From positions 970,265 to 1,034,264 of the forward strand of contig NC_057756.1 of assembly GCF_004010195.1 (NCBI RefSeq): a stretch of 64,000 bases of DNA. The letters run 5' to 3'. Of the stretch, positions 38,336 through 62,700 are shown in pieces. The position numbers and the translations under genes are program-made. The stretch's first letter is position 1. Every line of letters begins with the position of its first letter. The notes under the pieces are model-generated. The model was not told the origin of the DNA and made no database searches. It worked only from the letters and a program-made list of their open reading frames with translations. This stretch comes from Chiloscyllium plagiosum. Lineage: Eukaryota.

Positions 38336-38584
38336 AAACCCATTCAGGAGTCCTTTTGGTCATCTGATTCTGCAAAATGCATCACACTCACCAAGCATGC
38401 ACACATCAGTATGGCGTGTTATAGGAAAGTTGTTGCTGTACTCCTGCATTTTCTATCCATGACATTCTGGACAATGGATGTTAAAGATTTGTAAGATGTT
38501 GACAAAGGGTCATGCTGAATTGCTGCAGTGGATGTCGTGGATTGATCATTTGAATCAGAAATACTGAGCTTTGAGAAAAGTACG

Positions 38585-39185: not shown

Positions 39186-39269
39186 TGTAGCAATTACTCT
39201 ATATGCAATATTCACAGGGTGGTTACAACTAAACTTGAGTTAGTTAAAAAGAGCAGAAATGGTCACTGA

Positions 39270-39920
39270 GTGCAATACAGTTGGTATGGTGTATGCATGG
39301 ACTTCCAGAAGATGTTCAGTGCAGTGCCAAACTTATGATACTTATCAGAAAATTTATAGTCCATTGAATAAAACAGAGATTAGCAACTTGGTTACAAATT
39401 TGCTGAGGGATAAGAAACAGATGGACCAATGATATTATTGGAACTCCAGAAAGCTTTGCAGTGGAGTTCCTAAGAAGTTGGTATTAAGCCCTTTTTGAAC
39501 CTAATGTATACAAACGATATATAATTTAGCTGGCAAGCAGGGTACAATTTAAAAGATTGTGCATGATATGAAACTTTGAAGCATTGTAAACTGTAAGGAC
39601 GGCAGTGTAGAATTTTAAAAGATCATAGACAATTTGGTGGAGTGGAAAGATAGTTGGCAGATGCAGTTCAATGCAGAGAACTTTGAGATTGTACAGTTGT
39701 TAGAAAAAAGAGTTATAGATTTCTGATAGAGACTTTTCATTTCTGTACTGGTCATAAAGCCCCTTTTTAATTCTAAGTCAATTTTCCAGCAGTTGGCCTG
39801 TACCCTTCCATGTTCTGCCAAGTGCTCACCGAAATACATGATAAATGTTTTAATGTATTCCTGTCTCTATCAACCTTTTATACAGTGAATCCCACATACC
39901 AAATCGTCTCGTTAAAACAG
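39270..39920. mobile_element. Old CR1 fragments
   Basis: WQMQFNAE-like and DFQK-like remnants. Confidence 0.55.
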
Positions 39921-40164
39921 AAGCGCATCTGATGCCACCCTTGAGCATGTGCAGTAGCAACTTAAATGCCGAAGCAATTTTTAATAATGTTATAAAACGT
40001 AAAAATGAAATTAATGAAACATAATATACCTGAACAGAAAAACGAAAGTACTTCTTAAAAATGTATCGGTTTTATATTGCTCATGTGAAGCAGCGTTAAT
40101 GAAAGAAAAAATGGAGATGAGTCCATTCAGTGCAAATTTATCATTACACTATTCATGTCAGGAG

Positions 40165-40390
40165 ATATGGAAGTGCCGTTGTGGGACTGGCGTGGACCAA
40201 GTTAAAAATTACAGTATCATGCAATTGAAACGATTTATTGAACAATTGACACTGTCATATTTTGCTTTACATTTTGTGTCCTATGATCCTGCTCCACAGT
40301 TACCAGATGAAGGAGAAGCTCTCCGAAAGCTACTTCCAAATAAACCTGTTGGAGCATAACCTGGTGTTGTGTGATTTTTAACTGTGTCAG
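40165..40390 (+). mobile_element. Short Penelope-type terminal-repeat element
   Basis: inverted gttaaaaat / atttttaac blocks; hammerhead-like gatgaaggagaagctctccgaaagcta. Confidence 0.55.
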
Positions 40391-40469
40391 GAGATACTTT
40401 AATTCTTTTTTACCTCAATCCCCTAAACATCCTACTCCTGAGCAGAGAACTGCAGTCTCTGGTTTCTGG

Positions 40470-40900
40470 GGCCTGATGTCTGATTGGATCGTCACTCCTG
40501 TCGGCCCCGCATGCATTTTCCAGCTTTCGCTTCTGATTGGTCAGTGGCCCCATGGAGCACTTTTGACGGACGTTTCATGTCGAAATACGATTGGACCGGG
40601 TTTCAAAAGGGGCTGAGGGACCGCTTTTCGTATTGATCTGACGGAGACCCACGTGGTCCATTGACAGACGGCCTGTTTGCCAATTCGATTAGTTTGCAGT
40701 TTGACAGACGGGCCATCTTTGGATTCTATTGGTCAAGATCTCACGTGAGCCGCTTGAGGGACAGTCCGTTTCACACTGGGCAGTTTGACGGACGTGTTTA
40801 TCCGACTGGTAATTGGTCAGTGTCCCACGTGGTTGAGGGGTTGGACATTTGGTGGTGCTGTCTCGGGGTCCGGTGGCTGGAACTGGGTAGAGTGGCCACG
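40470..40900 (+). promoter_or_regulatory. CpG-rich promoter/5' region of the Myb/SANT gene with CCAAT boxes, E-boxes and TTGAC(A/G)GACG repeats
   Basis: ATTGG at 40483, 40536, 40590, 40728, 40812; CACGTG at 40650, 40742, 40826; TTGACRGACG at 40563, 40661, 40701, 40785. Confidence 0.75.
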
Positions 40901-41131
40901 ATGAGGGAAGGCCGGACCCCCCGTTTCAGTGACGGCGCCGTGGAGGTACTGCTGGAGCGGGTGAGGGCCCACAGGGAGATCCTGTTTCCCTGGGAGGGCA
41001 GGAGTGTGCCCCGGGAGTTGGTGCACCAGGCCTGGATGGACGTCGCTGTGTGTGTGAACGCCAGGAGCGAGGTGCCCAAGACCTGGCTGCAGTGCAGGAA
41101 GAAGTTCAACGGCCTGACCTGGACGGCCAAG
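40901..41131 (+). CDS. Exon 1 of a Harbinger-type Myb/SANT-like DNA-binding protein
   Basis: gccacgATG; RTPRFSDGAVEVLLERV..AWMDVA..VNA..KTWLQCRKKFNGL (Myb_DNA-bind_5-like); donor AAG|GTAAAC, phase 0. Confidence 0.88.
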
Positions 41132-41189
41132 GTAAACAGAAACCCCCGGGTTCTCCTACATGCCGGTGTTATCAAGTATCTCTGTGATT

Positions 41190-41500
41190 CCGGACAGTGC
41201 CAGTTTCCTCTGTGGTACCAAACTACTCTGATTCCCGGTTGTGACGCCTTGTTGTAGGTGTTCCCTGTGGTGTCCCGCTGTGCCAGCTCCTTCTGCACTA
41301 CCAGTCTCCTGTACTGAACCAATATTCTCTCTGGTACCAGTCCTGTCTTGTGCCTTTTTCCTCTGCAGTACCAGTTCCCTGTGCTATATCCCTACTGTAC
41401 CAGTTCCCTCTGTGGTACCAGTCCTGTGTGGTGCCACTCACCTGTGCATTGTGCCAGACCTCAGTGGTGCCCTGCTGTGCCAGTCCCTTTCCCGATGTAT
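41190..41500 (+). repeat. Degenerate minisatellite (gt[a/g]ccagt[t]ccctgt)
   Basis: recurrent accagt/gccagt..cct..g motif at the start of intron 1. Confidence 0.6.
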
Positions 41501-41576
41501 TGGGCTGTCTGCGTGGTCCCCTGTTGTGTCAGTTCACTCCATGTGCTGGTTCCCTATGCCGTGTCCTTACTTTACC

Positions 41577-42765
41577 TTAGAACCATAAAACCACAAAGTG
41601 ATACAGCACAAAAGGGGCCATTTGGTCCCTGTTGTTCATGCCATCCTAGACACTCAAATGCCCATTTTAATCACAACTTGCACGCAGTCTGTAGCCCTGC
41701 AGCTTACAGTATGTATAGTGCAGATCCAGGTACGTTTAAAATGACTTAAGGGGCTCTGCCTCCACCACCTTACGGGGCAGTGAATTCCAGTCACTCACAA
41801 CTCTTTGCATAAAAATGTTTGTCCTCGTGCCCCCTCAAATCATTCTGCCAGTTAGGTTCAATCTCTGATCCCTGGTTTTTGAATTCTGTGCCATGGGAAA
41901 CTGGTTCCTGTAATCTATCTTTACCCCTCTCCATTTTGTATACCTCAGTTATGTAACCTTCTCTGTTGCAAAGAACACAACCCCAACCCCTCCAATTTCT
42001 CCTTAGTCACAGTTCTGACAACATTCTAGTGTATCTTCTCTGCACACACTGCAGAGAAATGTGACTAGAATTGTACATAAACTGCAGTTGTGGTCTCATA
42101 TATCATAAGCATTTCATCGATATTCCCTAATTATGTATTCTATTACTCTGTTCGTGATGGAGATCATTCTGTCTGCCTTTTTTTGAAGCCTTACCTACCT
42201 GTAGAGCCACATTTAGAGACCTGTGCACTTGCACACCAAGATCTCTCACTTTGTCCTCATCTCTTTAAGATATTCCTGCTTTTTGTGCATTCTGTTTTAA
42301 AAGTTTAACGTGGTTAAGTGCATCACCTCATGCTTGTCCAAGTTGCTGCTTTCCTGCGGCAGGTTTTTCTCAAACCTGTCCACATCATTTTTGAGCTTCC
42401 AGCTATCCTCTACCAGTATCCACTATGCAACCAATTTTTGTGTCATCTGCAAATTTCCCAGTTGTGCCCCCACACTCAAGTCCAAGTTGTCATTGTATAA
42501 AACAAATAACCGGGGACCCAACACTAAGACTTGTGGTACAACATTTGAGGCACCTTTCCATTTGGAAAGGAGCCATTGACGATTGTTTGTTTCTTTGTTT
42601 ACCATTTGTTTCCTGTCACTAAACCAACTTTGATCCAATTCAGCATAATGCCTTGTATCCCGTGAACTTTTACTTTTTTGTCCAGTTTTTTCCATTTAGG
42701 ACCTTGTCAAATGCTGCACTGTATATAGAGAACATCCACTGCACCACCCTCATTGATTCTTGTGC
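41577..42765 (-). mobile_element. Old CR1 3' portion
   Basis: VPQVLVLGPRLFVLYND; tail remnant. Confidence 0.75.
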
Positions 42766-42770
42766 TTTCT

Positions 42771-45700
42771 TAGAGTCATAGAGATATAGAGCATGGAAAC
42801 AGCCCCTTCGGTCCAACTCGTCCATGCCGCACAGATGTCTGTACCTAATCTAGTCCCATTTGCCAGCATTTTAAACCATATCCCTCTAAGCCCTTCCTAT
42901 TTAAAAACCCATCCAGATGCCTCTTATATGCTGTAATTGTACCAGTCTCCACCACTTCCTGTCACAGGTCATTCCATACATAAACCACCCGATGTGTAAA
43001 AAAGTTGCCTCTTAGGTCCGTTATATGTCTTTCCCCTCTCACCCTGAAACTATGCCCTCTAGTTCTTGATTCTCCCATCCCAGGGGAAATACCTTGTCTG
43101 TTTATTCTATCCATGCCCTCTTGATTTTATAAACCTCTATCAGGTCACGTCTCAGCCTCCGACGCTCCAGGGAAAACAGCGCCAGCCTATTCAGCCGCTC
43201 CCTATGCTCAAATCATCCAACTCTAGCAACATGCTTGTAAATATTTTCTGAATCCTTTCAGGTTTCACAACATCCTTCCGATAAGAAGGAGAGCAGAATT
43301 GCACGCTATGTTCCAAAAGCGGCCTAACCAACGTCCTGTACAACTGCAACATTACCTCCTAAAACCTATACTCAATGCTCTGACCAATAAAGGAAAGCAT
43401 ACGAAATGCCACCGCCTTCACTATTCTATCTGCCTGCAACTCTACCTCGATGAGCTCTGAGCCTGCACTCCAAGGTCTGTCTTCAGCAGCACTCCCCAGG
43501 ACCTTATCATTAAGTATATAAGTCCTGCTATGATTTGCTTTTCCAAAATTCGGCACCTCAAATTTATCTAAATTAAGCTTCATCTGCCGCTCCTCGGCCC
43601 ATTGGCCCATTTGATCAAGATCCCATTGTAATCTGAGGCAACCTTCTTCGCTGTCCACAACATCTCCAATTTTGGTGTCTTCTGCAAACTTAGTGACTAT
43701 ACTTTATATTCACATCCAAATCCTTTGTATAAATGACAAAAAGCAGTGGACCGAGTACTGATACTTTTGGTATACCTCTGGTCACAGGCCTCCAGTCTGA
43801 AAAACAACCCTCCACTACCTTTGAGCCAGTTTTGTATCCATATTCATAGTTCTCCCTGTATTCCTTGAGATCTTATCTTGCTAACCAGTCTCCCATGCAG
43901 AACCTTTTGAACGCCTTACTGAGATCCATATAGATTACATCTACTGCTTTGCCCTCATCAATCCTATTTGCTACTTCAAAAAACTCAATCAAGTTCATGA
44001 GACATGAACTCTCTCGCACAAAGCCATGCTGACTATCCTTAATCAGTCCTTGCCTTTCCAAATACATGTGAATCCCCCTAACCCTAACCCTATCCCTCCA
44101 GCAACTTGCCCACCACCAATATGAGGCTCGCCGGTCTATAGTTCCTTGGCTTTTCCTTACCAATCTTAAATAGTGGCTCCATGTTTGTCACCCTCCAGGC
44201 TTCCAGCACCTTATCTCTAACTATTGATGATACAAATATCTCAGCAAGAGGTCCAGCAGTCACTTCCCAATCTCCCACAGAGTTCTCGGGTACACCTGAT
44301 CAGGTCCTGAGGATTTATACTTGGAGTGCAAGTTCATAGCTCCTTGAAAGTGGAGTTGCAAGTAGATAGGATAGTGAAGAAAGCGTTTGGTATGCTTTCC
44401 TTTATTGGTCAGAGTATTGAGTACAGGAGTTGGGAGGTCAAGTTGCAGCTTTACAGGACATTGGTTAGGCCACTGTTGGAATATTGCGTTCAGTTCTGGT
44501 CTCCTTCCTATCAGAAAGATGTTGTGAAACTTGAAAGGGTTCAGAAAAGATTTACAAGGATGTTGCCAGGGTTGGAGGATTTGAGCTATAGGGAGAGGTT
44601 GAACAGGCTAGGGCTGTTTTCCCTAGCGTGTCAGAGGCTGAGGAGTGACCTTATAAAATTATGAGGGGTATGGATAGGATAAATAGACAAAGTCTTTTCC
44701 CTGGGGTCGGGGAGTCCAGAACTAGAGGGCATAGGCTGAGGGTTAGAGGGGAAAGATATAAAAGAGACCTAAGGGACAGCGTTTTCACGCAGAGGGTGGT
44801 ACGTGTATGGAATGAGCTGCCAGAGGAAGTGGTGGAGGCTGGTATAGTTGCAACATTTAAGAGGCATTTGGATGGGTATATGAATAGGAAGGGTTTGGAG
44901 GGATACGGGCCGGGTGCTGGCAGGTGGGACTAGATTTGGTTGGGATATCTGGTCGACATGGACAGGTTGAACTAAAGGGTCTGTTCCATGCTGTACATCT
45001 CTATGACTCTGTAATATGGACATTTTTCAAGATGTCACCATCTATTTATCCACATTTTATCCCTTCCATGTCTTTCTGCACAGCAAATACTGATGCAAAA
45101 TACTTGTTTAGTATCTCCCCCATCTCCTGCGGCTTTATACATAGGCTGCTTTGCTGATCTTTGAGGGGCCCTATTCTCTCCCTTTTGTCTTCATGTGGTT
45201 TCGCATTAACCCTATTTGCCAAAGCTATCTCATCTTCCCTTTTTGCTCTCCTGATTTCTTCCTTAAGTATACTCCTACTGCCTTTATACTGTTCTAAGGA
45301 TTCACTCAATCTCTTGTCTATTCCTATCATGTGCTTCCTTCTTTTTCTGAACTGAAACCTCAATTTCTCTAGTCATGCAGCATTCCTACATCTATCAGCC
45401 TTTCCTTTCACCCTAACAGGAATACGCTGTCTGTGTATTCTCATTATCTCACTTTTGAAGACTTCCCATTTTCCAGTTGTCCCTTTACCTGCGAACATCT
45501 GCCCCGAAACAGCTTTTAAAAAATCTTGCCTAATACCATCAAAATTATCCAGCCTTCAATTTAGAACGTCAGCTTTTTGATCCAGTCTATAATTTTCCAT
45601 CAATATTTTAAAGCTAATGGTCACAAAAGCATTCTAGTCGCTGGCCCCAAAGTGCTCGCCCACTGACACCCCAGTCACCTGCCCTGCCTCATTTCCCAAG

Positions 45701-46055
45701 ACTCAGTCACATTTTGCACCTTCTCTGGTTGGTACATCCACATTCTGAATCAGAAAATGTTCTTGCACACACAACAAATTCCTCAATCTAAACCCTTAAT
45801 ACTAAGGCAGTCACAGTCTATATTTGGAAAGTTAAAATCCCCTAATATAACCACCCTATTGTTCTTACAGATATCTAAAATCTCCTTATAAATTTCTTTC
45901 TCAATTTCCTGCTGACTTTTAGGGGGGCTATAATACAATCCCAATAAGGTGATCATCCCTTTCTTATTTCTCAGTTCCCCCCCAAATAACGTCCCTGTAT
46001 GTATTCCCAGAATTATCCTCCCAAAGTACAACATTGTCCCTTATCAAAAACGTTA
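42771..46055 (-). mobile_element. CR1 LINE interrupted by an opposite-strand CR1
   Basis: EN (GLYYSPP, GDFNFP) near 45800-46030, RT 43300-44300, tail at 42771. Confidence 0.9.
44321..45010 (+). mobile_element. Young 5'-truncated CR1
   Basis: LYRTLVRPLLEYCVQFWSP..; tail ctgtacatctctatgactct. Confidence 0.92.
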
Positions 46056-46144
46056 TCATTTATATTTTTAAAATTTAGTTAGGAGACAGATCTTATGGTT
46101 ATTTGGGAGTGCAAGCTTTCGGAGCGCTGCTCCTTTGTCAGGTA

Positions 46145-47330
46145 ACGTTGAATGTTTTGAGGTGATTGAAGGTAGAGCAGTGGATATTGTCTACATGGAT
46201 TTTTGTAAGGCTTTTGACAAGGTCCCTTATGGAATGCTCATCCAGAAGATTAAGATGCATGGGATACATGATGATGTGGCTGTTTTTATTCAGAATTGGT
46301 TTGCCCATAGAAGGCAGAGGGTAGTGGTGGAAGGGTGTTTTTCTGGCTGGAGGACTGTGACTTGTGGTATTCTGCTGGGATCCATTGCTAGGACCTCTGG
46401 TGTTGGTGATTTATATAAATGATTTGGATGAAACTGTAGATGGCTGGATGAGTAAGTTTGCAGACAACACAAAGATTGGTAGAGTTGTGAATAATGCCAA
46501 ACATTGTCAGGGGGTACAGCAGGAGATAGAGCAGTTGCAGATATGGGTGGGGAAATGGTAGATGGAGTTTACTTCAGCAAATTGTGAAGTGCTGCACTTT
46601 GTGCGATCAAATGTTAAGGAAATGTATACATTTAATAGCAGGACCTTAAACCACATTGATGTACAGAGGGATCTGGGCTTCAAGTCTGTAGTTCCCTGAA
46701 AGTGATCACACGAGTAGACAGGGTCGTGAAGAAAGCATATGGCATGCCTACCTTTATTGGTTGGGGAATTGAATACAGGAGTCAGTATTTCATATTGCAA
46801 TTTTATAAGACTTTGATTAGGCCACACTTAGAGTATTGTGTTCAATTCTAGTTGCTACATTGCAGGAAAGATATGGAGGCCTTTGAGACAATGCTGAAAG
46901 TGTTAATGAGGATGCTGCCTGGATTTGAGGTTATGAGCTATAAGGAGAGGCTGGAAGAACTTGGCCTGTTTTCTCTGGAGTGGCAGAGACTGTGGGGAGA
47001 CTTGATAGAAGTCTATAAATTTCTGAGATATGCAGATAGGATTGATGGTCAGAATCATTTTTTCCAGAATTGAAATGTCTCGTACTCGGAGGCATGCATT
47101 TAAGATGATAGCGGGAAAGTTCAAAGGAGATGTGAGAGGCAAGTTTTTCTCAGAGTGATAGGAGTCTGGAGTGTGCTGCGGTGGTGAGACAGATAATCTG
47201 GGTGTTAAAGCGACTTTTAGCTAAGCACGTGAATATGGAAAAAGTAGCGGGATCTGAACCAAGGGCAGGTAAAAGAGATTGTTTAATTTGGCATCATGTT
47301 CGACACATCTTGTGCTGTACTGTTCTATGT
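46145..47330 (+). mobile_element. CR1 3' portion
   Basis: AVDIVYMDFCKAFDKVP, SKFADNTK. Confidence 0.9.
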
Positions 47331-47701
47331 ACTTGATCCCTATACTTTCTATTTTCCTCCAGGCTATCTGCAATATTGAGTTTTTTTGTGACTATCATAG
47401 CTTTATTTTTGTGTTTAATCCTCCTCAGTAGTTTTGTAGACAAGCATGGATGTGTAGATTTGGTGATGTCATTCTTATATTTGAAGGTCACGTTTCTACT
47501 TGTAACCAAAGTATCTCACTTTTTGGAGCCCCCCACTAATTTACCACTGATTTATCCTTCAGCGCTCCTGTTCCTCAACCCAAATCTCAGCAGTTTTGTA
47601 AAAGTTGCTTCCTTTTGTTCAAAATCTTTTTCAACTGATTTATTTCTGTCCTTTTCCATAATAATATTAAATCTAACTGAATTGTGGTTATTATCCCCAG
47701 T

Positions 47702-49913
47702 ATAGAGCCATAGAGATGTACAGAATGGAAACAGACCCTTTGGTCTAACTCGCCCATGCTGACCAGATACCCTCAGTGATTCTAGACCCATTTGTCAGCA
47801 TTTGGCCCATATCCTTCCAAACGCTTCCTTTTTACATTCCCATCCAGATGCCTTTTAAATGTTGTAATTGTACCAGCCCCCACCACTTCCTCTGGCATTT
47901 CATTCCTTACACGCACTACTCTCTGCACGAAAAGGTTGCCCCTTAGGTCACCAATAAATCTTTCCCCTCTCACCTTAAACCTATGCCCTCTAAGTTTGGA
48001 CTCCCCTACCCTGTGAGAAAGACCGTGACTGTTCACCTTATCTATACCCCTCAGGTTACTCTTCAGCTTCTGATGCTTCAGAGAAAATAGCCCCAGGCTA
48101 TTCAGCTTCTTGCTATAGCTCAAACCCTCTAACCCTGGCAATATCTTTGTAAATATTTGCTGAAGCTTTTTAAGTTGGACAACATCTTTCCGATAACAGT
48201 GAGACCAGAATTGAATGTAGTATTTCAATAGTGGCCTAACCAATGTCCTGTACAGCCACAACATGACCTCCCAACTTCTTTACTCAATGCACTGACAAAT
48301 AAAGGAACGCATTCCAAAAACCACCTTCACTATCCTACCTACCTGCGACTCCACTTTCAAAGAACTATGAACCTGCACTCCAAGATACCTTTGTTTGGCA
48401 ACTCTCCCCAGGACCTTAACATTAAGTGTATAAGTCCTCCCCTGATTTAGCATTCCAAAATGTACCACCTCACATTTATCTGGATTAAGCTCCATATGCC
48501 GCTCCTTGGCCTATTGAGCCATCAGATTAATGTTCAACTGTACTGTGAGGTAATCTTCTTTGCTGTCCGTTGCACCACCAATTTTGGGGTTATCTGCAAA
48601 TTTACTAACCATACCTCCAAATTTGCATCAAAATCATTGATATAAATTACAAAAAGCAGTGGATGGAACATTGATTGCTGTGGCACACCGCTGGTGACAG
48701 GCCTCCAGTCCGAAAAGCGACCATCCTCACCCATCCACTGTTTCCAACCTTGCCATCAATCTTGTATCCATTGGCTAGTTCTGCCTGTATTCTGTGTGAT
48801 CTAATGTTGCTAGCCAGTCTACTATGCGGAACCTTATTGAATGCCTTACTGAAGCCCATGTAGGTAATGTCCACCGCCCTGCCCTCATCAATCCCTCTTC
48901 GCCACTTCTTCAAATAAAAACAATCAGGTTAATGAGACAAGATTTCTCATGCACAAAACCATGCTGACTATCCCTAGTCAGTCTTTGCCTTTCCAAATAC
49001 ATGTAAATCCTGTCCCTCAGAATCCCTCCAACCATGTGCCTACCACTGATGTCAGGCTCACTGGTTTATAGTTCCATGGCTTTTCTTTACCACTTTACTT
49101 AAATAGTGGCGCCAAGTTAGCCAACCTCAAGTCTTCTGGAACCTCACCCGTGGCTATTACTGATAAAAAATATCTCAGCGAAAGGGCCAAGCAATCTCTT
49201 CACTGGTTTCCCGCAAACTGCTAGGATACACCTGTTCTGAGGATTTATCCATCTTTATGGGTTTTAAATCATTTTGCAATACTTCTTCTGTAATATTGAC
49301 ACTTCTCAAGATAACACTATTTATTTCCCCAAGTTCAGTAGCTTCCGTCTCCTGTTTCACAGTAAACACTGATGCAAAATACTTGTTTAGTGTCTCCCCC
49401 AGCTCCTGTGGTTCCCCACGTTGGCATCCTTAAGGGGCCATATTCCCCCTCAGCTATTCCTTTGTCCTCAGTGTATTGTAGAAACTGTTTGGATTCCCCT
49501 TTACTCTGTTTTTCAAAGCTATGTCATGTCTCTTTTTTTTATGTCCTCCTGATCCTCCTGTTAAGCACACTTCCATGATACTTATAGTCCTTGGGCTTCA
49601 AAGGATCCTTACTGCCTATACCCGACATATTCTTCCTTTTTCTTGACCAGAACCTCAATTTCTCCAGCCATCCAGTATTTCCGACATCTACCAGTGTTGC
49701 CTTTCACCATAATGGAGCCATATCCACCAATTTATGAAGGCAAAGTTTGACAGTATTTGGCAAGATCTTTCAAAAGTTTGATGTCGATATTTGCCGTTAA
49801 GGAGATGGCTAGAAAATGTGAAGCCTTCAAAAACGAGGTACTGAGTGTCCAGGGACAGTATGTCCCAATTAAGATGATGGGCAACGCTGGTAGATGGAGA
49901 GAATGCTGGATGA
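47702..49913 (-). mobile_element. CR1 with inverted 5' segment (49729-49913)
   Basis: RT/3' ORF fragments on the minus strand; adjoining ORF2 segment on the plus strand. Confidence 0.85.
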
Positions 49914-49949
49914 TTGGAGAAATGGTCCCTCACTGTCACTTTACCCACT

Positions 49950-51230
49950 CACTCCTCATCTTTTTCTAAAACTAAATCTGGAATTGCTTATCCTCTCATT
50001 GTACTTGTTGTTTAAAATAAAATTCCTGTGCACATTTCATCAATTTTTCACCCAGTTGATGTTAGGATAGTTAAAGTCTCAGACTATTATTGTCCTCATA
50101 TTTTGATAGGTGCAAATTTGCTGACATACATGTTCGCCTATGTCCTTCTCACTATTTGAGGATTTGTAGTGTATTCTGAGCAGTGTAACTGCCCTTATTT
50201 TTATTCCTAAACTCAATCCATAAAGCCTCATTTGTTTACCTGTTTAATATATTATCATGTCTTGCAAGCATAATTGATTCCAATACTGCTGCTCTCCACC
50301 CTGCGCCACCCTTTTTTGTCAGCCACTCTCTCCTGTCTAAAAGCAATACATCCAGGTTTATTGAGCTGCCACTTCTAAGCCTTTACTTTGGTTCTGATCC
50401 CCCTGCCCATAATAGTTTAAAATCTTCCCAACAGAACTGGCAAAAGTCCTTGAGGTTATTTGTCCAGCTCTGTCCAGGTGCAATTAGACTTATAGGTCGC
50501 ACCTTCCCCAGAAATGGTCCCAATGTCTGAAGAATCTAAACCCCTCCCTGGTACACCATTTCTGAGGCCATGCAATCATCTGATCTGTCCTCTTATTCCT
50601 GGTTTTGCTGGCCCTTGGTGCTGGGAGTAATTTTAGGTGCTGCATTTTAATTTATTTCCTAACTTCCTATATTCAGCTTTCAGGCCCTCATCTCTGGTTT
50701 GTCTATGTCTTTCGTATCACAACCACTAGCTGTTCACCATCCTGCTCCTGCAACCACTCTGTGACATCTCTGATCCTGGCATCAAGGAGGCAACATACCA
50801 CTCTGGATTAACATTTGCGACAACGGAAGTGCTCCTTATTATCGAGTCACTGATCACTACAGCCCTACTGATAGTTTTCCTCCCCTGTGGTGCCATGAAC
50901 TTGACTGATGCTGCTTTCCACTGAGAGGCCATTTCTCCCAACATTATCTGAAATGGTATATCTGCTTCAGGGCAGAATGACAACAAAGAACTCCTGTAGT
51001 TCCTTCCTGAAGCTTTTCCTTTATCTGATAGCCGCCTGTTCCTTTTCTGCCCGTGTAATCCTTGCCTGCGATGTGATTGTGTTGCTAAACGTGCTCTAAA
51101 CGATTATTCTCAGCATTGCGGATGCTCCACAGTGAGTCCACTCACAGCTTCAGCTTCAAAAAGTGCCAGTAGCTGCGTCTGGTCTCTGGAAACACCATGT
51201 CTAAGGTCTCCTGTCATGACTTCTCTCCAG
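49950..51230 (-). mobile_element. Old CR1 5' region (ORF1 esterase and EN remnants)
   Basis: RAVVISDSIIR (GDS-like motif), decayed EN. Confidence 0.7.
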
Positions 51231-51236
51231 ATTAAG

Positions 51237-54200
51237 TTAGTTCGAGACATCCAGCACTTCCTCCTCTGTAATTTGGACATTTTGCAAGGAGTCACCATCT
51301 ATTTCCCCACAGTCTATATCTTCCATATTCTTTTCCACAGTAAATACTGATGCAAAATACTCCCCCATTTTCTGTGGCTCCACACAAAGGCCGCCTTGCT
51401 GATCTTTGAGGGGCCCTATTTTCTCCCTGGTTACCCTTTTGTCCTTAACGTGTTTGTAAAAACCTTTTGGATTCTCCTTAATTCTATTTGCCAAAGCTAT
51501 CTCATGTCCCCTTTTTGCCCTCCTGATTTCCCTCTTAAGTATACTCCTACTGCCTTTATACTCTTCTAAGGATTCACTCGATCTATCCTGTCTGTACCTT
51601 AAATATACTTCCTTCTTTTTCTTAACCAAACCCTAAATTTCTTTATCCTCCAGCATTCCCTATACCTACCAGCCTTTCCTTTCACCCTTACAGGAATGTA
51701 CTTTCTCTGAATTCTCGTTATCTCATTTCTGAAGGCTTCCCATTTTCTAGCCGTACCTTTACCTGTGAACATCTGCCCCCAATCAGCTTTTGGAAGTTCT
51801 TGCCTAATACTGTCAAAATTAGCCTTTATCCAATTTAGAACTTCTACTTTTAGATCTGGTCTATCCTTTTCCATCACTATTTTAAATCTAATGGAATTAT
51901 GGTCGCTGGCCTCAAAGCGCTCCCCCACTGACACCTCAGTCACCTGCCCTACCTTATTTCCCAAGAGTAGGTCAAGTTTTGCACTTTCTCACATAGATAC
52001 ATCCACATACTGAATCAGAAAATTTTCTTTGTACACACTTGACAAATTCCTCTTCATCTAAACGCTTAACACTATGGCATCCCCAGTCTATGTTTGGAAA
52101 GTTAAAATCCCCTCCCATAATCACCCTATTATTCGTACAGATAGTTGAGATCTCCTTACAAATTTGTTTCTCAATTTCCCTCTGACTATTAGGAGGTCTA
52201 TAATACAATCCCAATAAGATGATCATCCTTTTCTTATTTCTCAGTTCCACCCAAATAACTACTCTGGATATATTTCCAGGAATATCCTTCCTCAGCACAG
52301 CTGTAATGCTATCCCTAATCAAAAACGCCACTCCCCCTCCTCTCTTGCCTCCCTTTCTCTCGTTCCTGTAGCATTTGTTTCCTGGAACACTAAGCTGCCA
52401 GTCCTGCCCATCTCTGAGCCATGTTTTTATAATTGCTATGATATCCCAGTCCCATGTTCCTAACCATGCCCTGAGTTCATCTGCCTTCCCTGTTAGGCCC
52501 CTTGCATTGAAATAAATGCAATTTAATGTATTAGTCCTACCTTGTCCCTGCCTGCCCTGACTACTTGACTCGATTCTGTTCTCAACTGTATCAGTCTCAG
52601 ATTGACCTCTTTCCTCACTATCTCCTTGGGTCCCACCCCCCACCCTTACTAGTTTAAATCCTCCTGAGCAGCTCCAGCAAATTTCCCTGCCAGTATATTA
52701 GTTTCCTTCCAATTTAGGTGCAATATGTCCTTCTTGTACAGGTCACTTCTACCCCAAAAGAGATTCCAATGATCCAAAAATGTGAGAGCTTCTCCCATAC
52801 ACCAGCTCCTCAGTCATACATTCATCTGCTTTATCCTCCTATTCCTGCCCTCACTAGCTCGTAGCGCCCGGAGTAATCCAGATATTACTACTCGTGAAGA
52901 CCTGCTTTTTAAATTTCTGCCTAACTGTCTGTAATCTCCCTTCAGACTCTCAACCTTTTCCCTTCCTATGTCATTGATTCCAATGTGGACAATGACCTCT
53001 TGCTGGCCTTCTCCCCCGTGAGAACATTCTGCACCCTCTTTGAGACTTCCTTGATCCTGGCACCAGGGAAGCAACACACCATTCTGATTTTTCACTACTG
53101 CCCACAGAGACGGCTCTCTATACCTCAGACTGGAGAATCCCCCAACACAATTGATCTCTTGGAACCCGATGTACCCCTTGTGTTAGAGCCAGTCTCAATA
53201 CCAGAAACTTGGCTGTTCGTGCTACGCTTCCCGGAGAATCCATCCTCCCCCTACATTTTCCAAAACAGCATACATTTTTGGAATGGGTATAGCCACAAAA
53301 GACTCCTCCACTAGCTGCCTACCTCTCTTAGCTTTCCTGGAGTTAACCCATCTATGTGACTGTATCTGAGACTTTCCCCCCTTCCTATAACTGCCATGCA
53401 TCACATACTATTTTTGTTGCAAATTCCTCATTGCTTCTAATTGTCTCTCCAACTGATCCATTTGATCTGATAAGATTCGCAATCAACAGCATTTATGGCA
53501 GATATAATCCGCTGTAATCCTTAAACTCTCTTTAAACTCCCACATCTGACAAGAAGCATATATCGCTCTACTAAAGGCCATTTTTGCTTCATCACCATTG
53601 ACAGACCCCGAAAATAACACTGACTTATTCCTCTACAAACACTGCCCCAGGTTAAATTAATAGTTATGGCTTATATTTTAAGTTTAATCAAGAGACATCT
53701 CTCCAAAAACACATTATCAAGAAAGAACCCACTCTACTAACTACTGCAGACTTTCTGTAGATCACGCTTAAAACAACAAAACACTTATCTGCTTCTGTGC
53801 TGTGAACTTCACCCAATAGTTCCTCCAAGATCAGTCGTGAATTACACTGTTTGTTAATTTTCCCAGACACACTCTGATGTCCCCAGTACCTGATCAGGTA
53901 TACCCTATAACTCTGTGCGAAGCTAGAGAAGTGATTGCTGGGCCTCTTGCTGAAATATATGTATCATCGATAGTCAAAGGTGAGGTGCCGGAAGACTGGA
54001 GGTTGGCTAATGTAGTGCCACTGTTTAAGAAGGGTAGTAAGGACAAGCCAGGGAACTATAGACCATTGAGCCTGACGTCGGTGGTGGGCAAGTTGTTGGA
54101 GGGAATCTTGAGGGACAGGATGTACATGTATTTGGATAGGCAAGGACTGATTAGGGATAGTCAAAATGGCTTTGTGCATGGGAAATCATGTCTCACAAAC

Positions 54201-55400
54201 TTGATTGAGTTTTTTGAGGAAGTAACAAAGAGGATTGATCTATGTAGACTTCAGTAAGGCGTTCAACAAGGTTCCCCATGGGAGACTGATTAGCAAGGTT
54301 AGATCTCACAGAATACAGGGAAAACTAGCCATTTGGATACAGAACTGGCTCAAAGGTAGAAGACAGAGGGTGGTGGTGGAGGGTTGTTTTTCAGACTGGA
54401 GGCCTGTGACCAGTGGAGTGCCACAAGGATCGGTGCTGGGTCCTCTACCTCTTGTCACTTACATATTTGACTTGGATGCGAGCATAAGAGGTACAGTTAA
54501 TAAGTTTGCAGATGACACCAAAATTGGGGGTGTAGTGAACAGCGAAGAGGGTTACCTCAGATTACAACAGGATCTGGACCAGAAGGGCCAGTGGGCTGAG
54601 AAGTGGCAGATGGAGTTTAATTGAGATAAATACGAGGTGCTGGATGTTGGGAAAGGAAATCTTAGCAGGACTTACATACTTAAGGTGTAAGGTCCTCGGG
54701 AGTATTGCTGAACAAAGAGACCTTGGAGTGCAGGTTCATAGCCCCATGAAAGTGGAGTCGCAGACAGATAGGATAGCGAAGAAGGCATTTGCTATGCTTT
54801 CCTTTATTGGTCAGAGTATTGAGTACAGGAGTTGGGAGTTCATGTTGCGGCTGTACAGGACATTGGTTAGGTCGTTTGGAATATTGCGTGCAATTCTGGT
54901 CTCCTTCCTATCATAAAGATGTTGTGAAATTTGAAAGGGTTCAGAAAAGATTTACAAGGATGTTGCCAGGGTTGGAGGATTTCAGCTATAGGGAGAGGCC
55001 GAACTGGCTGGGGCTGTTTTCCCTGGAGCATTGGAGGCTGAGTGGTGACAAAATTGAAGGGCATGGATTGGTTAAATAGAAAAAGTCTTTTCCCTGGGGT
55101 CGGGGAGTCCAAAACTGGAGGGCATAAGTTAGAGTGAAAGGGGAAAAATATAAAAGAGATCTATGAGGCAACTTTTTCACACACACACAATGTATATAGA
55201 ATGAGCTGCCAGAGGAAGTGGTGGAGGCTGGTATAATTGTAACATATAAAAGGCATTTGGATGGATATGTGAATAGGTAAGATTTGGAGGGATATGGGCC
55301 AGGTGCTGGCAGGTGGGACTAGATTAGGTTGGGATATCTGGTCGGCATGGATGGGTTGGACTGAAGGGTCTGTTTCCATGCTGTACATCTCTATGACTCT
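51237..55400 (+). mobile_element. Near full-length CR1 with 5' half inverted (51237-53876 minus; 53877-55400 plus)
   Basis: 5'UTR, ORF1 (VHIGIND, RVVISGLL) and EN (YFNARGL, YRPPNS, GDFNFP) on minus; RT and tail on plus. Confidence 0.92.
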
Positions 55401-56499
55401 GCTCACTCTAAGAAAACCTCATTAAGCTCTGGACCTTCCTTCATTTCAAGCACTTCAATTTTGATCAAAAGTGCCTACCTTTTATTTAAGCTAATGTTAT
55501 CATTACAAACTGTGAGAAAATACTCTGCAGTTATCACTTTGGAGTTGTCTGTTTCCCTTGGGAACATGTCACTTTCTGAACTGCCCCGCCTGAGACTGAG
55601 TCCTGAATTCAGTCTTTCAGCTGCACCTACTCGCCGTTTTCACCCAAGCCCAAAGCATTCTTAATTATCTATGCAGCACTTCTTCTGCTGGCCCACTGTG
55701 CCACTTCCCTTCCTGCTATGCCTGTTCTGTGTTGCCCACCTTTGTCAGTCCCTCCCTGATGCTCCTTTCTGGCAGTCCCTCCATAGTGCCTCTCTCTGCC
55801 AGTCCAGTCTGTGGTTCCCTGCTGTCTCACCCCACCACCATACTCCTCCATGTTAGTTACCTTGATGGCCACCAATGTCAGTCCCCCCTGAGGTGCCTGG
55901 CCATGCCAGACCCTTCCCATTGTTCCAGTCTACTCTGTGGCATTTTTCATCACTTCAACTTCCCCTGTTAATTCTTTTTCCTGATATTCTTATACATTTG
56001 ATGTAACTGCAATACTCCAACTTCTGTGAACAGCCAACATTTTATTAAGCAAATACAGCACAAGCTTTATCATGGTTGCAAAGTATGTTGGGAGGTCTCC
56101 GAATAAAGGAATAGCTCTTCCTTTTAGACAAAATCTTTACATCCCGGTCAGTAATGCCCACAAGACAATCCCCATAGTCACATGCCCCTCAAGACACAAT
56201 GCAGTGACCTTATCATTTCCTGGAACAATATAATTTAAATCATCCGTTAATGGCCGTTCGTGTTGTGTATCTTTTTTTTCACTGCAGGGAATAGTCAAAA
56301 TTCCAACTGTAATTGATTTTTGAATAGGATGATGTTGCAAATTATCTTTGAATAATAGGAGATGGCCATGTAAATGGCTCTGAATGAAAGGAATTTACAT
56401 TGTTATCCCTTGCCAATCTACCTGTAAGTCAGAGGCATCCCATCCTAGCTTTGGGGCATACAATTTCCTGCAGGTCACCAGAGCAAATTAACTCTTTAA

Positions 56500-56965
56500 T
56501 ATCTCACCCCTCCCACTCTGCCAATGTCATATCAGTCCTGGGCCACCTCCTCCGCCAAATCCAAGCCGCTCGACGACTGGAGGAAGAAGACCTCATCTTC
56601 CACCTTGGGACCCTCCAACCAGATGGCATCAATGTTGATTTTACCAGTTTCCTCATCTCCCCTACCCCGCCTTATCCCAGACCCACCCTCCAACTCAGTA
56701 CTGACCTCTTGAATTCTCCTACCTGTCCATCTTCCTTCCCACCTATTTGCTCCACCCTTTACTCCGATATATCACCATCATCCCGACCTTCATCCAACGA
56801 TCATATTCCTAGCTACCTGCCCCATCCCCAGCCCCAACCACCTCCCATTTATCTCTCGGTCCCTTTGTGCCCCCCACCCCCAACACATTTCTGATAAACT
56901 TGTACTCAAAACATTGACTTTCCTGCTCCTCTGATGCTGTGCTTTTCAAGCGCTACACTTCTTGA
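56500..56965 (+). mobile_element. Penelope-like 3' fragment
   Basis: RRLEEEDLIFHLGTLQPDGINVDF; homologous to 38585-39185. Confidence 0.75.
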
Positions 56966-57399
56966 CACCATCCTTTGTGGTGTCACTAGGTTTCTCAGTA
57001 TGCCAGCCCTCTTCTGCTGTCAGCTGCCCCCACAATAGAGCATCCTACATAATATTATTGACTCATTTCCACACTTGGTAGTTAGAAATGGGCATTACAA
57101 ACTGACTTAGCTTGTAATGCCAATGGCCCTGAATGGATTTTGAAAAACATTCTCGTATCGATTACATTTCGAAAAGAGTAATGACCTGCGATGCTGTGTA
57201 TTGTGGTTTGAGGTCATGAATGGCGCTATGCTTGGTTTCAGGTGTCACCCAGTACATGACTGTTATATCCCACTCAGGCCTACTTTGTAAATTTGCCTCA
57301 TGCTTTCACAATTAGACCTGCAATGAAAAAACAGTCATCCACTGCAGTCCCATTTCAAGGTAAATTGGACCTTTTTTGCTGATCATGTCACTGCTGCCT

Positions 57400-58228
57400 C
57401 TCAGAATGTGCCTCAGGACTTTACGCTATTTTCCTATAATTCCCTGTAATCTTGCGCATTGTCTCTTTTGAATAATCATCGAACTCCCTCTTGAATGTCT
57501 GCAGTGATCCTGCCTTCACCACTTGTGCGGATATTGCATTCTGTACTGGGATTACTGATTGTGCAAAATGGTATTGCTTCACATGTTACATTTGTGTCTT
57601 TTTCAATTTACCTTAAAGCTGTACCCCCTCATTCTTAATATTTTTATAAATGCCAGTGTAGTTTATCCCCATCTACACTTCCAGATCTTTGCTGATTTAG
57701 AAAGCTTCTTTGGAATCTCCTCTTCAGCTCTTCCTCTCCAAGGGAAGCCATCCCAACTACTCCAATCCATACCCATAACTGAAGTTTCTCATCCATGGAC
57801 CCATTGTTGTAAGTCTCTTCTGCAGTTTTCCAGTGCTTTCCCATCCTGTATATAGTGTGTAGATTTGTACTCATTACTTCACATGAGATTTAACAAGTAT
57901 CTTATGCAAGTTCAGCAAAGCTTGTTTGCTCTTGTACTTTGTGCCCACATTAATCGAGCCTCCGTGAAGATCAAAAGTGTACTCTATTAGCTTCTGCCAC
58001 TTTAATGGTTTACGCATATATACATCTGCCATCCTGTTAGCCAACGCCCCCTTTCGAATAATACCTTTTTTTTAAACTATATCTTCATGTTCTTTCTATT
58101 AAACTATATCACCTCACCCTTCTCCTTTTGAAATTCTACACAATCTTCCTCACAGCTTATAATGCTTCAGATATTTTTGTTGCCTGCAAAGTCCAGAGTT
58201 ACTCCATTGCACTAAGATTTTGAAAATC
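57400..58228 (-). mobile_element. Old CR1 fragment
   Basis: decayed similarity to the CR1 3' region. Confidence 0.55.
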
Positions 58229-59810
58229 TTAGTGCAAGGGACCTGGGTTCGATTCCCGCCTCGGGCTACTGTCTGTGTGGAGTCTTCCCGTGTCTGCATG
58301 GGTTTCCTTCCAGGTGGTCCAGTTTCCTTCCACGATCCAAAGATATATTTGGAATAGCAAAGAATGATTATGGATAGTCAACCTGGCTTTGAGCGTTGGA
58401 AATCGTGTCTCATGAGCTTGATTGTTTCTTAAAAAAACCTCCGGATTCATGAGGACAGAGCGGTAGATGTAATCTGTGTGAACTTCAGTAAGGCATTCAA
58501 TAATGTTCTCTGTGGGAGACTGGTTAGCAAGGTTAGATCTCATGAAATACAGGGAGAACCCTGTATTTCATGAGATTGGATACAGAACTGGCTTGAAGGT
58601 AGAAGACAGAGGGTGGTGGTGGAGGGTTGTTTTTCAGACTGGAGGGCCTGTGATCAGGGGAATGCCACAAGGATCGGTGTTGGGTCCACCACTTTTCATC
58701 TATGTGAATGATTTGGATGTGAGCATAAGAGGTATAGTTAGTAAGTTTGCAGATGACACCAAAATTGGACAGCGAAGAAAATTACCTCTGATTACAACAG
58801 GATCTTGACCATATGGGCCAATGGGCTGAGGAGTGGCAGATGGAGTAATTTCGATAAATGCGAGGTGCTACATTTTGGGAAAGCAAATCTTAGCAGGACT
58901 TATACACTTGAATGGTAAGGTCCTGAAGAGTGTCACTGTAAAAAGAGACCTTGGAGTGCAGGTTCATAGCTCATTGAAAGTAGATAGGATAGTGAAGAAG
59001 GCATTTGTATGCTTTCCTTAATTGGTTACAGTATTGGTTGCAGGGTTTGGGAGTTCATGTTACGGCTGCACAGGACATTGGTTAGGCCACGCTTAGAATA
59101 TTATGTGCAGTTCTGGTCTCCTTCCTATCGGAAGGATGTTGGTGAAACTTGAAAGGGTTCAGAAAAGATTTCCAAGGATATGCCAAGGTAGGAAGATTTG
59201 AGATTTAGGGAGAGGTTGAATAGGCTGGGCTGTTTTCCCTGGAGCGTCAGAGGCTGAGGGGTGGCCTTAGAAATATTTATAAAATCATGACAAAAATAGA
59301 CAAATCTTTTCCCTGGAGTGGGGGAGTCCAGAACTGGAGGGCATAGGTTTAGGGTGAGAAGGGAAAGATATGAGACCTTGGGTCTCTTCACACAGCGAGT
59401 GGTATGTCTATGGAATTAGCTGGCAGAGGAAGTGGTGGAGGCTAGTACAATTGCAACTTTTAAAACCCATCTGTATGGGTATTTGAATGGGAAGGGTTTG
59501 GAGGAATATGGGCTGGGTGCTGGCAAGTGGGACTAGTTTAGGTTGGGATATTTGGTCGGCACGGGCGAGTTGGACCGAAGGGTCTGTTTCTGGGTTGCAC
59601 ATCTCTGTGACTCTCTGACTCTGTGCAGGTTAGGTGAATTGGCCGTGCTAAATTGCAAATGCTGTTCAGGGATGTGTAGGTCAGGTTCATTAGTCAGGGG
59701 TAATTGTAGAGTAATCGGGTAGGGGATTGGGTCTAGGTGGGTTACTCTTCAGAGAGTTGGTGTGGTCTTGTTGGGCCAAATTGCCTGTCTCCAGGGATTC
59801 TGTGATTCTT
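58229..59810 (+). mobile_element. SINE (58229-58340, 59620-59810) split by a CR1 insertion (58340-59620)
   Basis: B box GGTTCGATTCC; CR1 RT PQGSVLGP, KFADDTK; SINE resumes gtgcaggttaggtgaattggcc. Confidence 0.88.
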
Positions 59811-60086
59811 GATTTTATGAAATAAGGCTCCTCATGCCAAATTACTTGCCAGTGGAGGCTAGAGGTGCTGAATCGCCTATTCCAGCTCCTCGTATTATGT
59901 GGTGTGTTCCTTTGTTACCCCAGGAAATCACCTCTACCAAACTTACTCCAACCTGAAAAGAAATCCGTCAAAAATTATTCTTTTTTTTGTCACTTAGTCA
60001 ATTCTGTGTTCATGTTACTCTTGTGTGTTTAAATTAATGAGCTCTAAGTTTGCTCACAAGTCTCTTGTCTCTCCCTCCACCTGCAG

Positions 60087-60246
60087 GAGAAGCTGGCACG
60101 TCGAGCGAGAAAGAGAACCAGTACTGGGGAGCGGCCACCCTCCATTCTAGATCTCACCCACATGGAGCAGGAAGCTCTGGACATCATTGGGCCCAACAGC
60201 CGGAGGAGCATCGAGAATGGCGAGGCTGGAGGCCAAGTTTCACAGG
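60087..60246 (+). CDS. Exon 2 of the Myb/SANT gene
   Basis: acceptor ctccctccacctgcag; EKLARRARKRTSTGERPPSILDLTHMEQEALDIIG matches the typical post-Myb 'TGGG...LT..E....IG' segment; phase 0/1. Confidence 0.85.
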
Positions 60247-60387
60247 GTGTCCTCCGCATTCCCATAGCTGCTTGCGTTTCACCAAGGCGTCGCACCAGGA
60301 GCGCGGTCAACAAGGGGAGGGCTGCTCCATGCTTCCCCCACCTCCCTAGTGCTCGCTGACCCTTCTCCCCTCTCCCTTTTCCTCCAG

Positions 60388-61220
60388 GTCTCTCGCATTA
60401 CTTGGGCTTTGCTGGGCATGAAATCGAGGAGCACCACCTGATGGAAGAGGCTCCGTCCTTTCAGTACCACAGCACAGAAATTGGCGTGTCTGACGGGAGC
60501 GAGGGCGAACTCCATGAGTCCTCACGAGGTGAATTATTCAGCAGTAGTGAGCAGGAGCTGAACATACTGGAAAGGACAGTGCAGGAGACGGGCGGCCACA
60601 GGGCCAACCCAATTCCCAGCTATGCTGAAGAGGACAAAGATGCTGATTTCAGCGGCCCGGCCTTTAAAAGAAAGATCTTCCATGAGCACCACCAATTGCT
60701 CGAGGCTTTAGACAGCTTGCCCAGGAGCTGCCTCACCCTGTCTGAGAGTATGGAGGAGTCTGCTTCTATACTGTGTGGTGTTGTGGCACAAGGGATCACC
60801 AGCCTGCAGTCCACCATGGAGCACATGGTTAGCTCAGTGGAAGCAGCAGTGAGGCCCCCCATCCCAGAGCCCGTGCCGCCAGCCTTGGCCTCATTGATCG
60901 AAGCTCAGACCAGTGCCATCCAGGCCCTGGCCTGCACCATCTCCTCAGGCTTGGAAAGGTTGGGGGCGCGCATCGACCAGGGCTTCGGTCGCCTCACTGG
61001 TCTCCTGGAGTCTGCCTTGCCGTCGGCCAGCGGGGGCACCGTTGAGGCCCGGGACGAGGGCAGTGTGACGTGTACGGCACGATGCCACACTGCTCAGGAT
61101 GCCAACGCATCCACACCCTCGCTGCATCCCCGACCATCCACTGCCCTGGAGGCAGCGGCGGTAGCTCCACCCGAAGTCAGGTCCCCTCGCGCAAGAGCTC
61201 TTCGAGATCGCCGACCATAA
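60388..61220 (+). CDS. Exon 3 (terminal) of the Myb/SANT gene
   Basis: acceptor ctcccttttcctccag, phase matches exon 2; 833 nt open; acidic region then predicted helical region; TAA. Confidence 0.85.
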
Positions 61221-61324
61221 GCACCTCGTGGGATGGGATTAACACATTGAAGCAGGAGTGGGAGGCCTTGTAGGAGCACAAGTGTAGGAAAGAGAACACT
61301 GCGGATAGGCGGGGTGGGGATAGC

Positions 61325-61377
61325 AATAAAGTCTGCGTTATTGTGTTATTTCATATGATTTGTATAAAATCAATAAA
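61325..61377 (+). terminator. Polyadenylation signals
   Basis: AATAAA at 61325 and 61372, GT/T-rich sequence downstream. Confidence 0.65.
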
Positions 61378-62391
61378 ATGTGACCCGTTTTGCAATTTTG
61401 ACTTTATTTTACTGGTGCTGGGTGGGTTATTGCTTGCAAAGTTAAAATGGCATTTTTCCCAGTGAGTGCCTTGATGGGTCTTTAGCATTGTGAGGTGTGC
61501 CCTATGTTGCAGTTTTGCGGCATCAACTTTGTACCAATTACCCCCAATAACTTCGATGAGGGGCGCAAAAGGAAATGGCTAAAGTGGCCAGCAACAGGAG
61601 GACAGGAGATTTGTCTCTTCGCCCCCCTCCCCAAAAAAAAAGCCCACAATTTAAACAAAGACAGAAGTACACTGGAGGCAGATCCAAACTGTTTACAAAT
61701 TTGCACCTAGACTGGATTGTCTCTTGAAGATTGTTCGGGCAGACTGGGTTTTTTTCAAATGTAGTTTTAGAAAGCAATACTGATTCAATTGATGTTTGTA
61801 AAACCCTTGAGTGGCCTCAACAAGGCTGATGAGAAAAGGTGATTTCTTTTATGGATCAGTCCAGAGATGAGGGGCATTGTTCTAAATTTCGGGGTCATCC
61901 TGTCAGGAGACATAGTAGAATTCTTGTTTCCTTTCAGAGGGTAATTTTACTTAGAATTCTCTGCCTGAACACACTGAAAACAGCATCATTGAATATTTTT
62001 AAGACCATTGAAGATTGATTTGCGATTGGCAGGAAAATCAAAGGTGAATAGACGGCAGTGGGAAATTCAAAACCTAAACAGATCAGGCATGATGGAGCAA
62101 AGTTGAGTGATCATTTCAGTGCTTATAGTTGTTTATTGTTATGTTAAATTCATGGGGTATGGCTATTGCCAGTTAGGCTAACATTTATTGCCAATTGCTA
62201 ACTTTCCTTCAGAAAGTGGTGGTGCTCTGTCTCATTGCTGCAGTCGGTATGAAATAGGTACACCAACAGTGATGTAAGGAAGAGAGTTTGAGGATTTTAT
62301 ACATCAGTGTTCAAGGTATCTATTATTTTCTCACACTATTCAGAGCATGATGTACCTCTGGTTGCTAGTGGGAAGAAATTAGAACTTCAGA

Positions 62392-62700
62392 TCATAGAGT
62401 CATAGAGATGTATAGTATGGAACAAACCCTTCATTCCAACCCATCCATGCCGACCAGATATCCCAACCCAATCTAGTCCCACCTGCCAGCACCCGGCTCA
62501 TATCCCTTCAAACCCTTCCTATTCATATACCCATTCAAATGCCTTTTAAGTGTTGTAATTGTACTAGCCTCCACCACTTCCTCTGGCAGTTCATTCCATA
62601 CATGTACCACCCTCTGTGTGGAAAAAGTTGCCCCTTAGGTCCCTTTTATATCTTTTCCCTCTCACCCTAAACCTATGCCCTCTAGTTCTGGAATCCCTGA
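62392..62700 (-). mobile_element. CR1 3' end
   Basis: reverse complement of the CR1 tail. Confidence 0.9.

Follow-up and report, generated by a model that had tools for sequence, protein, structure and literature searches.

LOC122544156 of Chiloscyllium plagiosum, a conserved Myb/SANT gene of sharks and rays with a probable PIF/Harbinger origin

Within a stretch of 64,000 nucleotides (nt) of the Chiloscyllium plagiosum genome (NC_057756.1, positions 970,265 to 1,034,264; hereafter the window), the three-exon gene LOC122544156 encodes a protein of 407 amino acids (aa) that begins with a Myb/SANT domain. The gene is spliced, it is an immobile and conserved host gene, and it is one (A) of three elasmobranch paralogues (A, B and C). 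Overall, we consider it best explained (probability around 0.78) as an expressed host gene that would descend from the Myb open reading frame (ORF) of a Harbinger transposon, domesticated before sharks and rays split and duplicated into A, B and C, with a product that may serve as a nuclear adaptor. Domestication of Harbinger Myb genes is known and recurrent, and LOC122544156 is already annotated, without a function.

Gene structure, transcripts and conservation

An earlier reading made from the sequence alone had proposed three coding exons, and both their coordinates and their phase were borne out: exons of 231, 160 and 833 nt (the last including the stop) join into 407 codons followed by TAA, and all 407 residues are the same as in RefSeq XP_043539121.1, the LOC122544156 product of C. 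plagiosum, which is labelled uncharacterized. The start codon lies in the context GCCACGATGA, both introns are of the GT..AG type with pyrimidine-rich acceptors, and the predicted polyadenylation signals are in place (Table 1). Exon 1 matches PF13873 (E 2.6e-11, 43.7 bits against a cut-off of 21.7), and exons 2 and 3 matched no Pfam family. Three tandem-repeat rows were found in the window, none of them inside an exon.

Four public runs (X15, X16, X2 and X22) were compared with positions 59800-61500; X15 and X16 come from different studies, and the single-cell run X22, with 0 reads in the 6% sampled, is no test. In the X15 and X16 contigs, the sequence before 60085 matches positions 41100-41129, the final 30 letters of exon 1 and a string unique within the window, so that exon 1 is joined to exon 2 across the 18,955-nt intron and the predicted junction 41131->60087 is seen in both. 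This boundary is covered in two of the three contig runs; no X2 contig reaches it. The second predicted junction, 60246->60388, is seen in X2 (one run of three), at a depth of 50 beside 56 for the form that retains intron 2. Depth in X16 is 27-50 over exon vs 5 over the intron end, and contigs end at 61389 (X15) and 61393 (X16), both just past the second AATAAA, and at 61333 (X2). Contig sizes fit transcripts starting at about 40839-40886, only the last 30 loose letters being displayed.

Two further forms may be produced. Exon 1 holds only two donor-like GTs by a crude consensus count, one of them at 40961, and in 11 isoform records of A and B, which cover 8 species, residue 20 is spliced to exon 2, with the Myb domain lost in frame; use of this donor was not observed in C. 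plagiosum. A Logan skate record of B (P0062) joins exons 1 and 2 and continues after the exon-2 end with other sequence, resembling retention of intron 2. Both the Myb-less and the intron-2-retained forms could be regulatory isoforms or tolerated mis-splicing.

All 31 exon 3 matches were elasmobranch, and all 23 matches to aa 1-130 came from sharks and rays, falling into the three groups A, B and C. In the tree of aa 1-130 (33 rows, with 8 partial models left out), each group is one clade (100/99, 99/98 and 100/98, respectively); A and B each hold sharks and rays, and C is present in rays too. Paralogue A has one orthologue in each of the 17 shark and ray species in the trees, which come near the species grouping. 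Exon 2 is 75-100% identical across the 17 orthologues. Compared with the protein encoded in the window, Myb domains of galeomorph sharks are 95-100% identical and those of the remaining sharks and rays 77-86% (16 full models; the one from Cetorhinus is without exon 1), vs 30-66% for aa 346-407 outside bamboo sharks. Judged from protein conservation alone, this difference between Myb domain and tail suggests purifying selection on A.

The expectation of a single-copy gene was not upheld: A is one of three paralogues and is partly homogenised with its neighbour B. B is linked to A and C is unlinked: A and B records have a longest contig of equal size in 15 of the 15 species with data (in Mustelus as small as 0.63 Mb, in Heptranchias 1.26 Mb), their accessions are near-consecutive in Chiloscyllium, and C sits on contigs other than theirs. 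B is absent from the window.

Purifying selection had earlier been argued from an ORF that stayed intact while its first intron filled with long interspersed nuclear elements (LINEs). The filling itself is evident, self-matches within the window covering 57.6% of intron 1 vs 29.6% of upstream DNA and 0% of the exons. Among 25 frames scanned, 12 lie in intron 1; three of these match LINE endonuclease or reverse transcriptase, and one has a weak esterase match (E 0.008), presumably a CR1-type ORF1. The step from intron to selection is weak, because more than 88% of whale-shark genes carry CR1-like LINEs in their introns, according to the available text of 10.1101/443036, and a long LINE-filled intron is therefore ordinary for sharks; the case for purifying selection rests on the orthologues instead.

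Full-length homology to dispersed Myb ORFs (see below) would also be expected of a non-autonomous Harbinger copy that is mobile, or was immobilised recently, and that has kept an intact ORF by chance. This explanation is, however, effectively refuted by the single A in each species across sharks and rays with a tree near the species grouping, by the 19-kb intron, and by the flanks. There, as had been claimed, no transposase ORF or terminal inverted repeats (TIRs) lie nearby: a comparison of 36000-40900 with 61221-64000 yielded no TIRs but two inverted matches, both within LINE 3' ends, and 0 of 126 stop-free frames of at least 48 aa (covering roughly 35.5-42.8 kb and 59.6-64 kb, with intron 1 only sampled in its middle part) matched transposase families. 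The protein records hold one A and one B per species, a count that unannotated copies would escape.

Mosaic history of exon 3

In every species with full models of both genes, A and B share 60-68% identity in the Myb domain; for aa 271-345, the identity is 88-100% in 10 shark pairs vs 67-69% in 6 ray pairs. Grouping is by paralogue for exons 1-2 and residues ~212-271, whereas in sharks the remainder of exon 3 groups by species, aa ~127-211 and 272-407 being homogenised with B and 212-271 not. The segments used for segment trees were picked after seeing the alignment; in a tree of the whole of exon 3 (20 rows, no segment choice), holding A together was rejected (approximately unbiased test, p-AU 6e-10), and the pairing of A with B follows species in Heptranchias, Pristiophorus, Heterodontus, Cetorhinus and Mustelus and, in carpet sharks, order. 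A per-site scan of 7 sharks found 28 paralogue-diagnostic sites (24 in aa 1-114 and 4 in 230-264) and 101 species-shared sites, all within 127-211 and 272-407; in 4 rays, the scan found 60 paralogue-diagnostic vs 2 species-shared sites. In all 11 species, A carries E230, P242 and A264 where B carries V, S and P.

The simplest reading of this pattern is recurrent partial gene conversion between the linked A and B, with selection shielding from it the DNA-binding end as well as the stretch where the first long helix begins. Since ray A and B group together on exon 3 (83/86), conversion may have occurred early in rays and then stopped. Short-read contigs can mix A and B: X15 contains a 58-nt patch (60845-60902) with 13 differences that encodes paralogue-B residues and is either a contig chimera or a converted allele, and the mosaic could in principle be an assembly or annotation artefact in which reads of neighbouring paralogues were collapsed. 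We consider this very improbable, however, because homogenisation affects the same two blocks in at least 5 shark lineages, whose assemblies are independent, a protected block lies between them in one exon, identity is graded across aa 271-345, and the pattern is missing in 6 of 6 ray pairs.

Relatives and origin of the family

In a FastTree phylogeny of Myb domain and linker (135 of 158 rows kept, 23 without a full Myb match left out), A, B and C form one clade (0.995) nested in shark-type Myb ORFs (0.876), which align with A/B/C over their full length (369 columns, hhalign 100%). These relatives are 40-76% identical to one another and lie on different Heptranchias contigs, and in two cases the ORF is fused into an unrelated gene model (SAMD1-WH and vigilin KH). 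The nearest relatives thus appear, as annotated, to resemble decayed and dispersed transposon copies. An ORF of 300-400 aa with a Myb domain is described as the second gene of PIF/Harbinger elements (PMC9710019), and such elements are reported in the whale shark (PMC8455134) and, in the available text of PMC9179366, undetected in the elephant shark. Taken together, a fresh Harbinger origin of A/B/C is likely.

Alternatively, the family may have arisen from an older cellular Myb/SANT gene of the NAIF1, MSANTD3/4, MYPOP or TSNARE1 type that was duplicated and diverged fast. Such an origin would fit the shared Pfam family, the NCBI 'MYPOP-like' label on some orthologues and the NAIF1 label of one related family (D, below) in white shark; an Atlas NAIF1 cluster at 0.89 is a lead only, and NAIF1, MSANTD1-4 and TSNARE1 are not in the tree under those names. 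Several lines of evidence make it unlikely, however. True MYPOP, itself described as a putative Harbinger-derived gene (PMC9392472), shares the PF13873 domain and is the source of the automatic label, but matches in the Myb domain only (32% identity over 78 columns, E ~1e-7), with no C-terminal match, and forms a distant clade of its own; MYPOP orthology was accordingly rejected. A profile search of 1.84 billion representatives returned 330 matches, 18 of them at E<=1e-30, of which the 15 named are all elasmobranch, with no bony-vertebrate protein among them; the 3 without names align as isoforms of B or C. Finally, the closest outgroups look like dispersed, damaged copies. The suggestion of a cartilaginous-fish-specific gene therefore holds among named matches, with a narrower range: these are elasmobranchs, and no chimaera occurs among the named rows of the matches listed, 125 of 146 new rows being without a name.

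The available text of PMC9392472 describes NAIF1 and MSANTD1-4 as conserved genes of about three exons without transposon ends, encoding a single Myb-like trihelix in 275-560 aa, in all of which A is alike. These genes were found from human proteins and are placed at the root of the jawed vertebrates or sarcopterygians (PMC9392472), whereas A/B/C are seen only in elasmobranchs, comprise three paralogues with partial concerted evolution, and have a C-terminal two-thirds that matches shark-type ORFs only. The Myb-like ORF2 product of PIF/Harbinger transposons such as Harbinger3_DR is likewise of 300-400 aa with an N-terminal Myb/SANT/trihelix domain (PMC9710019, PMC9392472); unlike for these elements, no transposase, TIR or mobility was found near A, whose orthologues have been fixed since the shark-ray split. 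The insect and plant PIF Myb/MADF genes APM2/APM2b, HDP2 and ALP2 are also lineage-restricted domestications, and APM2/APM2b are tandem duplicates with 57% identity (both as described in PMC9710019); these genes were co-domesticated with a transposase gene, whereas no such partner lies in the few kb flanking A.

Further Myb genes were encountered alongside. Family D (P0078, P0214-P0224) is a second conserved elasmobranch Myb gene, homologous to A aa 2-333 (29%), with 11 cluster members (90% clustering) from about ten sharks and a further cluster from skate; only in white shark does it bear the name NAIF1, a putative label. A further Myb ORF clade (0.947; P0083, P0117, P0089, P0114-P0116, P0088 and P0075), with named members in Heterodontus, Scyliorhinus and Narcine, is a possible further domestication. 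Pristiophorus genes P0068, P0072, P0077 and P0234-P0236 carry up to three tandem Myb repeats of the A type, possibly a young lineage-specific expansion. In the Atlas, the nearest clusters are PF13873 chordate clusters without names, the first possibly the protein's own.

Predicted function, gene map and implications

A structure model places the Myb helices at residues 11-23, 38-55 and 62-86, with a predicted local distance difference test (pLDDT) score of 82-96 over aa 11-80. Beyond this trihelix, it predicts a short helix (102-111), a disordered acidic linker and two long helices (221-284 and 295-340), the second with a clear hydrophobic heptad, followed by a basic tip with near-invariant arginines. 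The top fold matches of the Myb model were Zeste and telomere-Myb domains, all at E>0.1; Foldseek returned 0 of 110 matches at E<=0.001, and a sequence search of the PDB gave 2 matches at E>=0.23. A predicted complex of the A and B C-terminal helices scored 0.06 twice with alignments unused, which is no answer and was not used either way. A and B differ by 20 fixed differences in aa 1-130, including G71 and W74 in helix 3 of A, where B, C and most relatives carry D and R. Because of these two residues, A probably reads a different DNA sequence, or binds more weakly.

We propose that the Myb-like, non-transposase ORF of a PIF/Harbinger element was domesticated before the shark-ray split, dated for sharks and skates to about 286 million years ago (Mya; PMC10115646), and that later duplication gave A, the linked B and the unlinked C. 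The product is most likely a nuclear, sequence-specific DNA-binding adaptor, by analogy with NAIF1 and the Harbinger3_DR Myb-like protein, both described as binding DNA and importing a transposase partner (PMC9392472; PMC9710019); the latter binds a 9-bp subterminal motif (via the same two sources). The trihelix would bind DNA, basic patches would mediate nuclear import, and partner proteins would be bound by the two long helices of the C-terminal part, as transposase would have been by the ancestral protein. A and B keep distinct DNA-binding ends and hence probably read different targets, with conversion keeping the rest of shark exon 3 alike, and activity might be tuned by the internal donor (no Myb domain) and by retention of intron 2 (Myb domain only).

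Several observations weigh against this reading. A DDE or transposase domain occurs in 0 of 34 long matches, no relative is linked to transposase or TIRs, and a search for copies of the dispersed family yielded no more than 8 proteins, in 2 species. The earlier proposal of a domesticated Harbinger Myb gene is thus upheld as to a spliced, immobile and conserved gene, whereas its Harbinger origin is likely and not shown, because no relative is tied to a transposase. None of the three refuting conditions set out with that proposal was encountered, the one on a plain MSANTD orthologue being addressed only indirectly. Every orthologue sequence is a gene model, and the C-terminal helices are of low confidence (pLDDT 45-70; predicted template modelling score 0.31). 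X15, X16 and X2 are without a record as RNA, although the exact GT..AG joint, the exon depth excess in X16 and the ends after a poly(A) signal point to mRNA. Finally, intron 2 is retained in all three contig runs, X15 and X16 showing the retained form only; contigs lose rare variants, so that this establishes retention and does not imply absence of splicing. Retention is predicted to lead to a stop at codon 168 and a 167-aa Myb-only product, and the full-length protein may be a minority product.

Table 1. Positions of the parts of LOC122544156 within the window
Feature	Position	Strand	Basis or remark
Putative promoter and 5' UTR	40480..40900	+	GC/CpG-richer; ATTGG/CCAAT x6, CACGTG x3, TGAC[AG]GA[CG] x5
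Coding exon 1 (aa 1-77) with the predicted DNA-binding trihelix of Myb/SANT type	40901..41131	+	PF13873, structure model
In-frame internal 5' splice donor CGG/GTGAGG after codon 20	40961..40966	+	Use would delete the Myb domain
Intron 1, 18,955 nt, decayed CR1-type LINEs in both orientations	41132..60086	+	Absent from X15 and X16 contigs
Coding exon 2, aa 78-130, basic patch RRARKR, short helix 102-111	60087..60246	+	Structure model
Intron 2, 141 nt, weak donor AGG/GTGTCC, often retained	60247..60387	+	Contigs
Coding exon 3 (aa 131-407) with a disordered acidic linker, two long helices (221-284, 295-340) and a basic tip at the C terminus	60388..61220	+	
3' UTR, AATAAA at 61325 and 61372	61221..61393	+	Contig ends

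Upstream of exon 1 (40480-40830), CCAAT boxes are near-periodic and accompany CACGTG palindromes at 40650, 40742 and 40826 and five TGAC[AG]GA[CG] boxes. The counts of these motifs, which were chosen after inspection of the stretch, were reached in 2, 0 and 0 of 2000 shuffles (CCAAT, CACGTG and TGAC[AG]GA[CG], respectively). The boxes may belong to an ordinary NF-Y/E-box promoter or, alternatively, be relics of transposon subterminal repeats. Elsewhere in the window, 24256-24775 (+) is the last exon of a separate B30.2 (PRY/SPRY) gene (SPRY E 1.7e-16), which we take to be TRIM- or butyrophilin-like; this exon reaches its stop near 24775, which rules out exon 1 as part of that gene. Positions 32247-33653 (-) hold decayed pol fragments of LTR-retrotransposon type (RT_RNaseH at E 0.0024, which is below cut-off), presumably Gypsy-like, and in 19503-23332 a ~1-kb unit is repeated head to tail in about 4 diverged copies (76-81% identical), one of them broken by a ~145-nt LINE 3' end (21184-21331); three frames scanned in these units had no Pfam match. 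A 151-nt unit forms two near-identical tandem copies (98% matches) at 2638-2944.

A broader reading, which we hold only tentatively and find rather doubtful taken jointly, is that sharks and rays had their own radiation of Harbinger Myb domestications, including A/B/C and at least D and E (P0083/P0117). In it, A and B would act as a pair of regulators whose protein-binding halves evolve jointly and whose DNA-reading heads are separate, and would be switched by conserved Myb-less and Myb-only isoforms; relic Harbinger subterminal motifs, for instance the TGAC[AG]GA[CG] boxes of A's own promoter, may be among the sequences that they read. If true, this radiation would have been invisible to human-centred surveys, the published vertebrate list of Harbinger Myb genes having been built from human proteins, as described in PMC9392472. 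A/B/C were not found in the literature searched (six LOC identifiers, 0 matches), where supplements and subscription papers could list them, and the available text of PMC9179366 leaves open the presence of Harbinger in cartilaginous fish other than the elephant shark. The family thus offers a concrete, ~286-million-year-old elasmobranch case for testing Harbinger domestication in cartilaginous fish. The converted-protected-converted pattern within one exon, which ceases in rays, marks the residues that selection appears to keep different between A and B, and these are direct targets for binding assays. Overall, A and B represent a clean case of partial concerted evolution, accompanied by hints of further shark-specific domestications.

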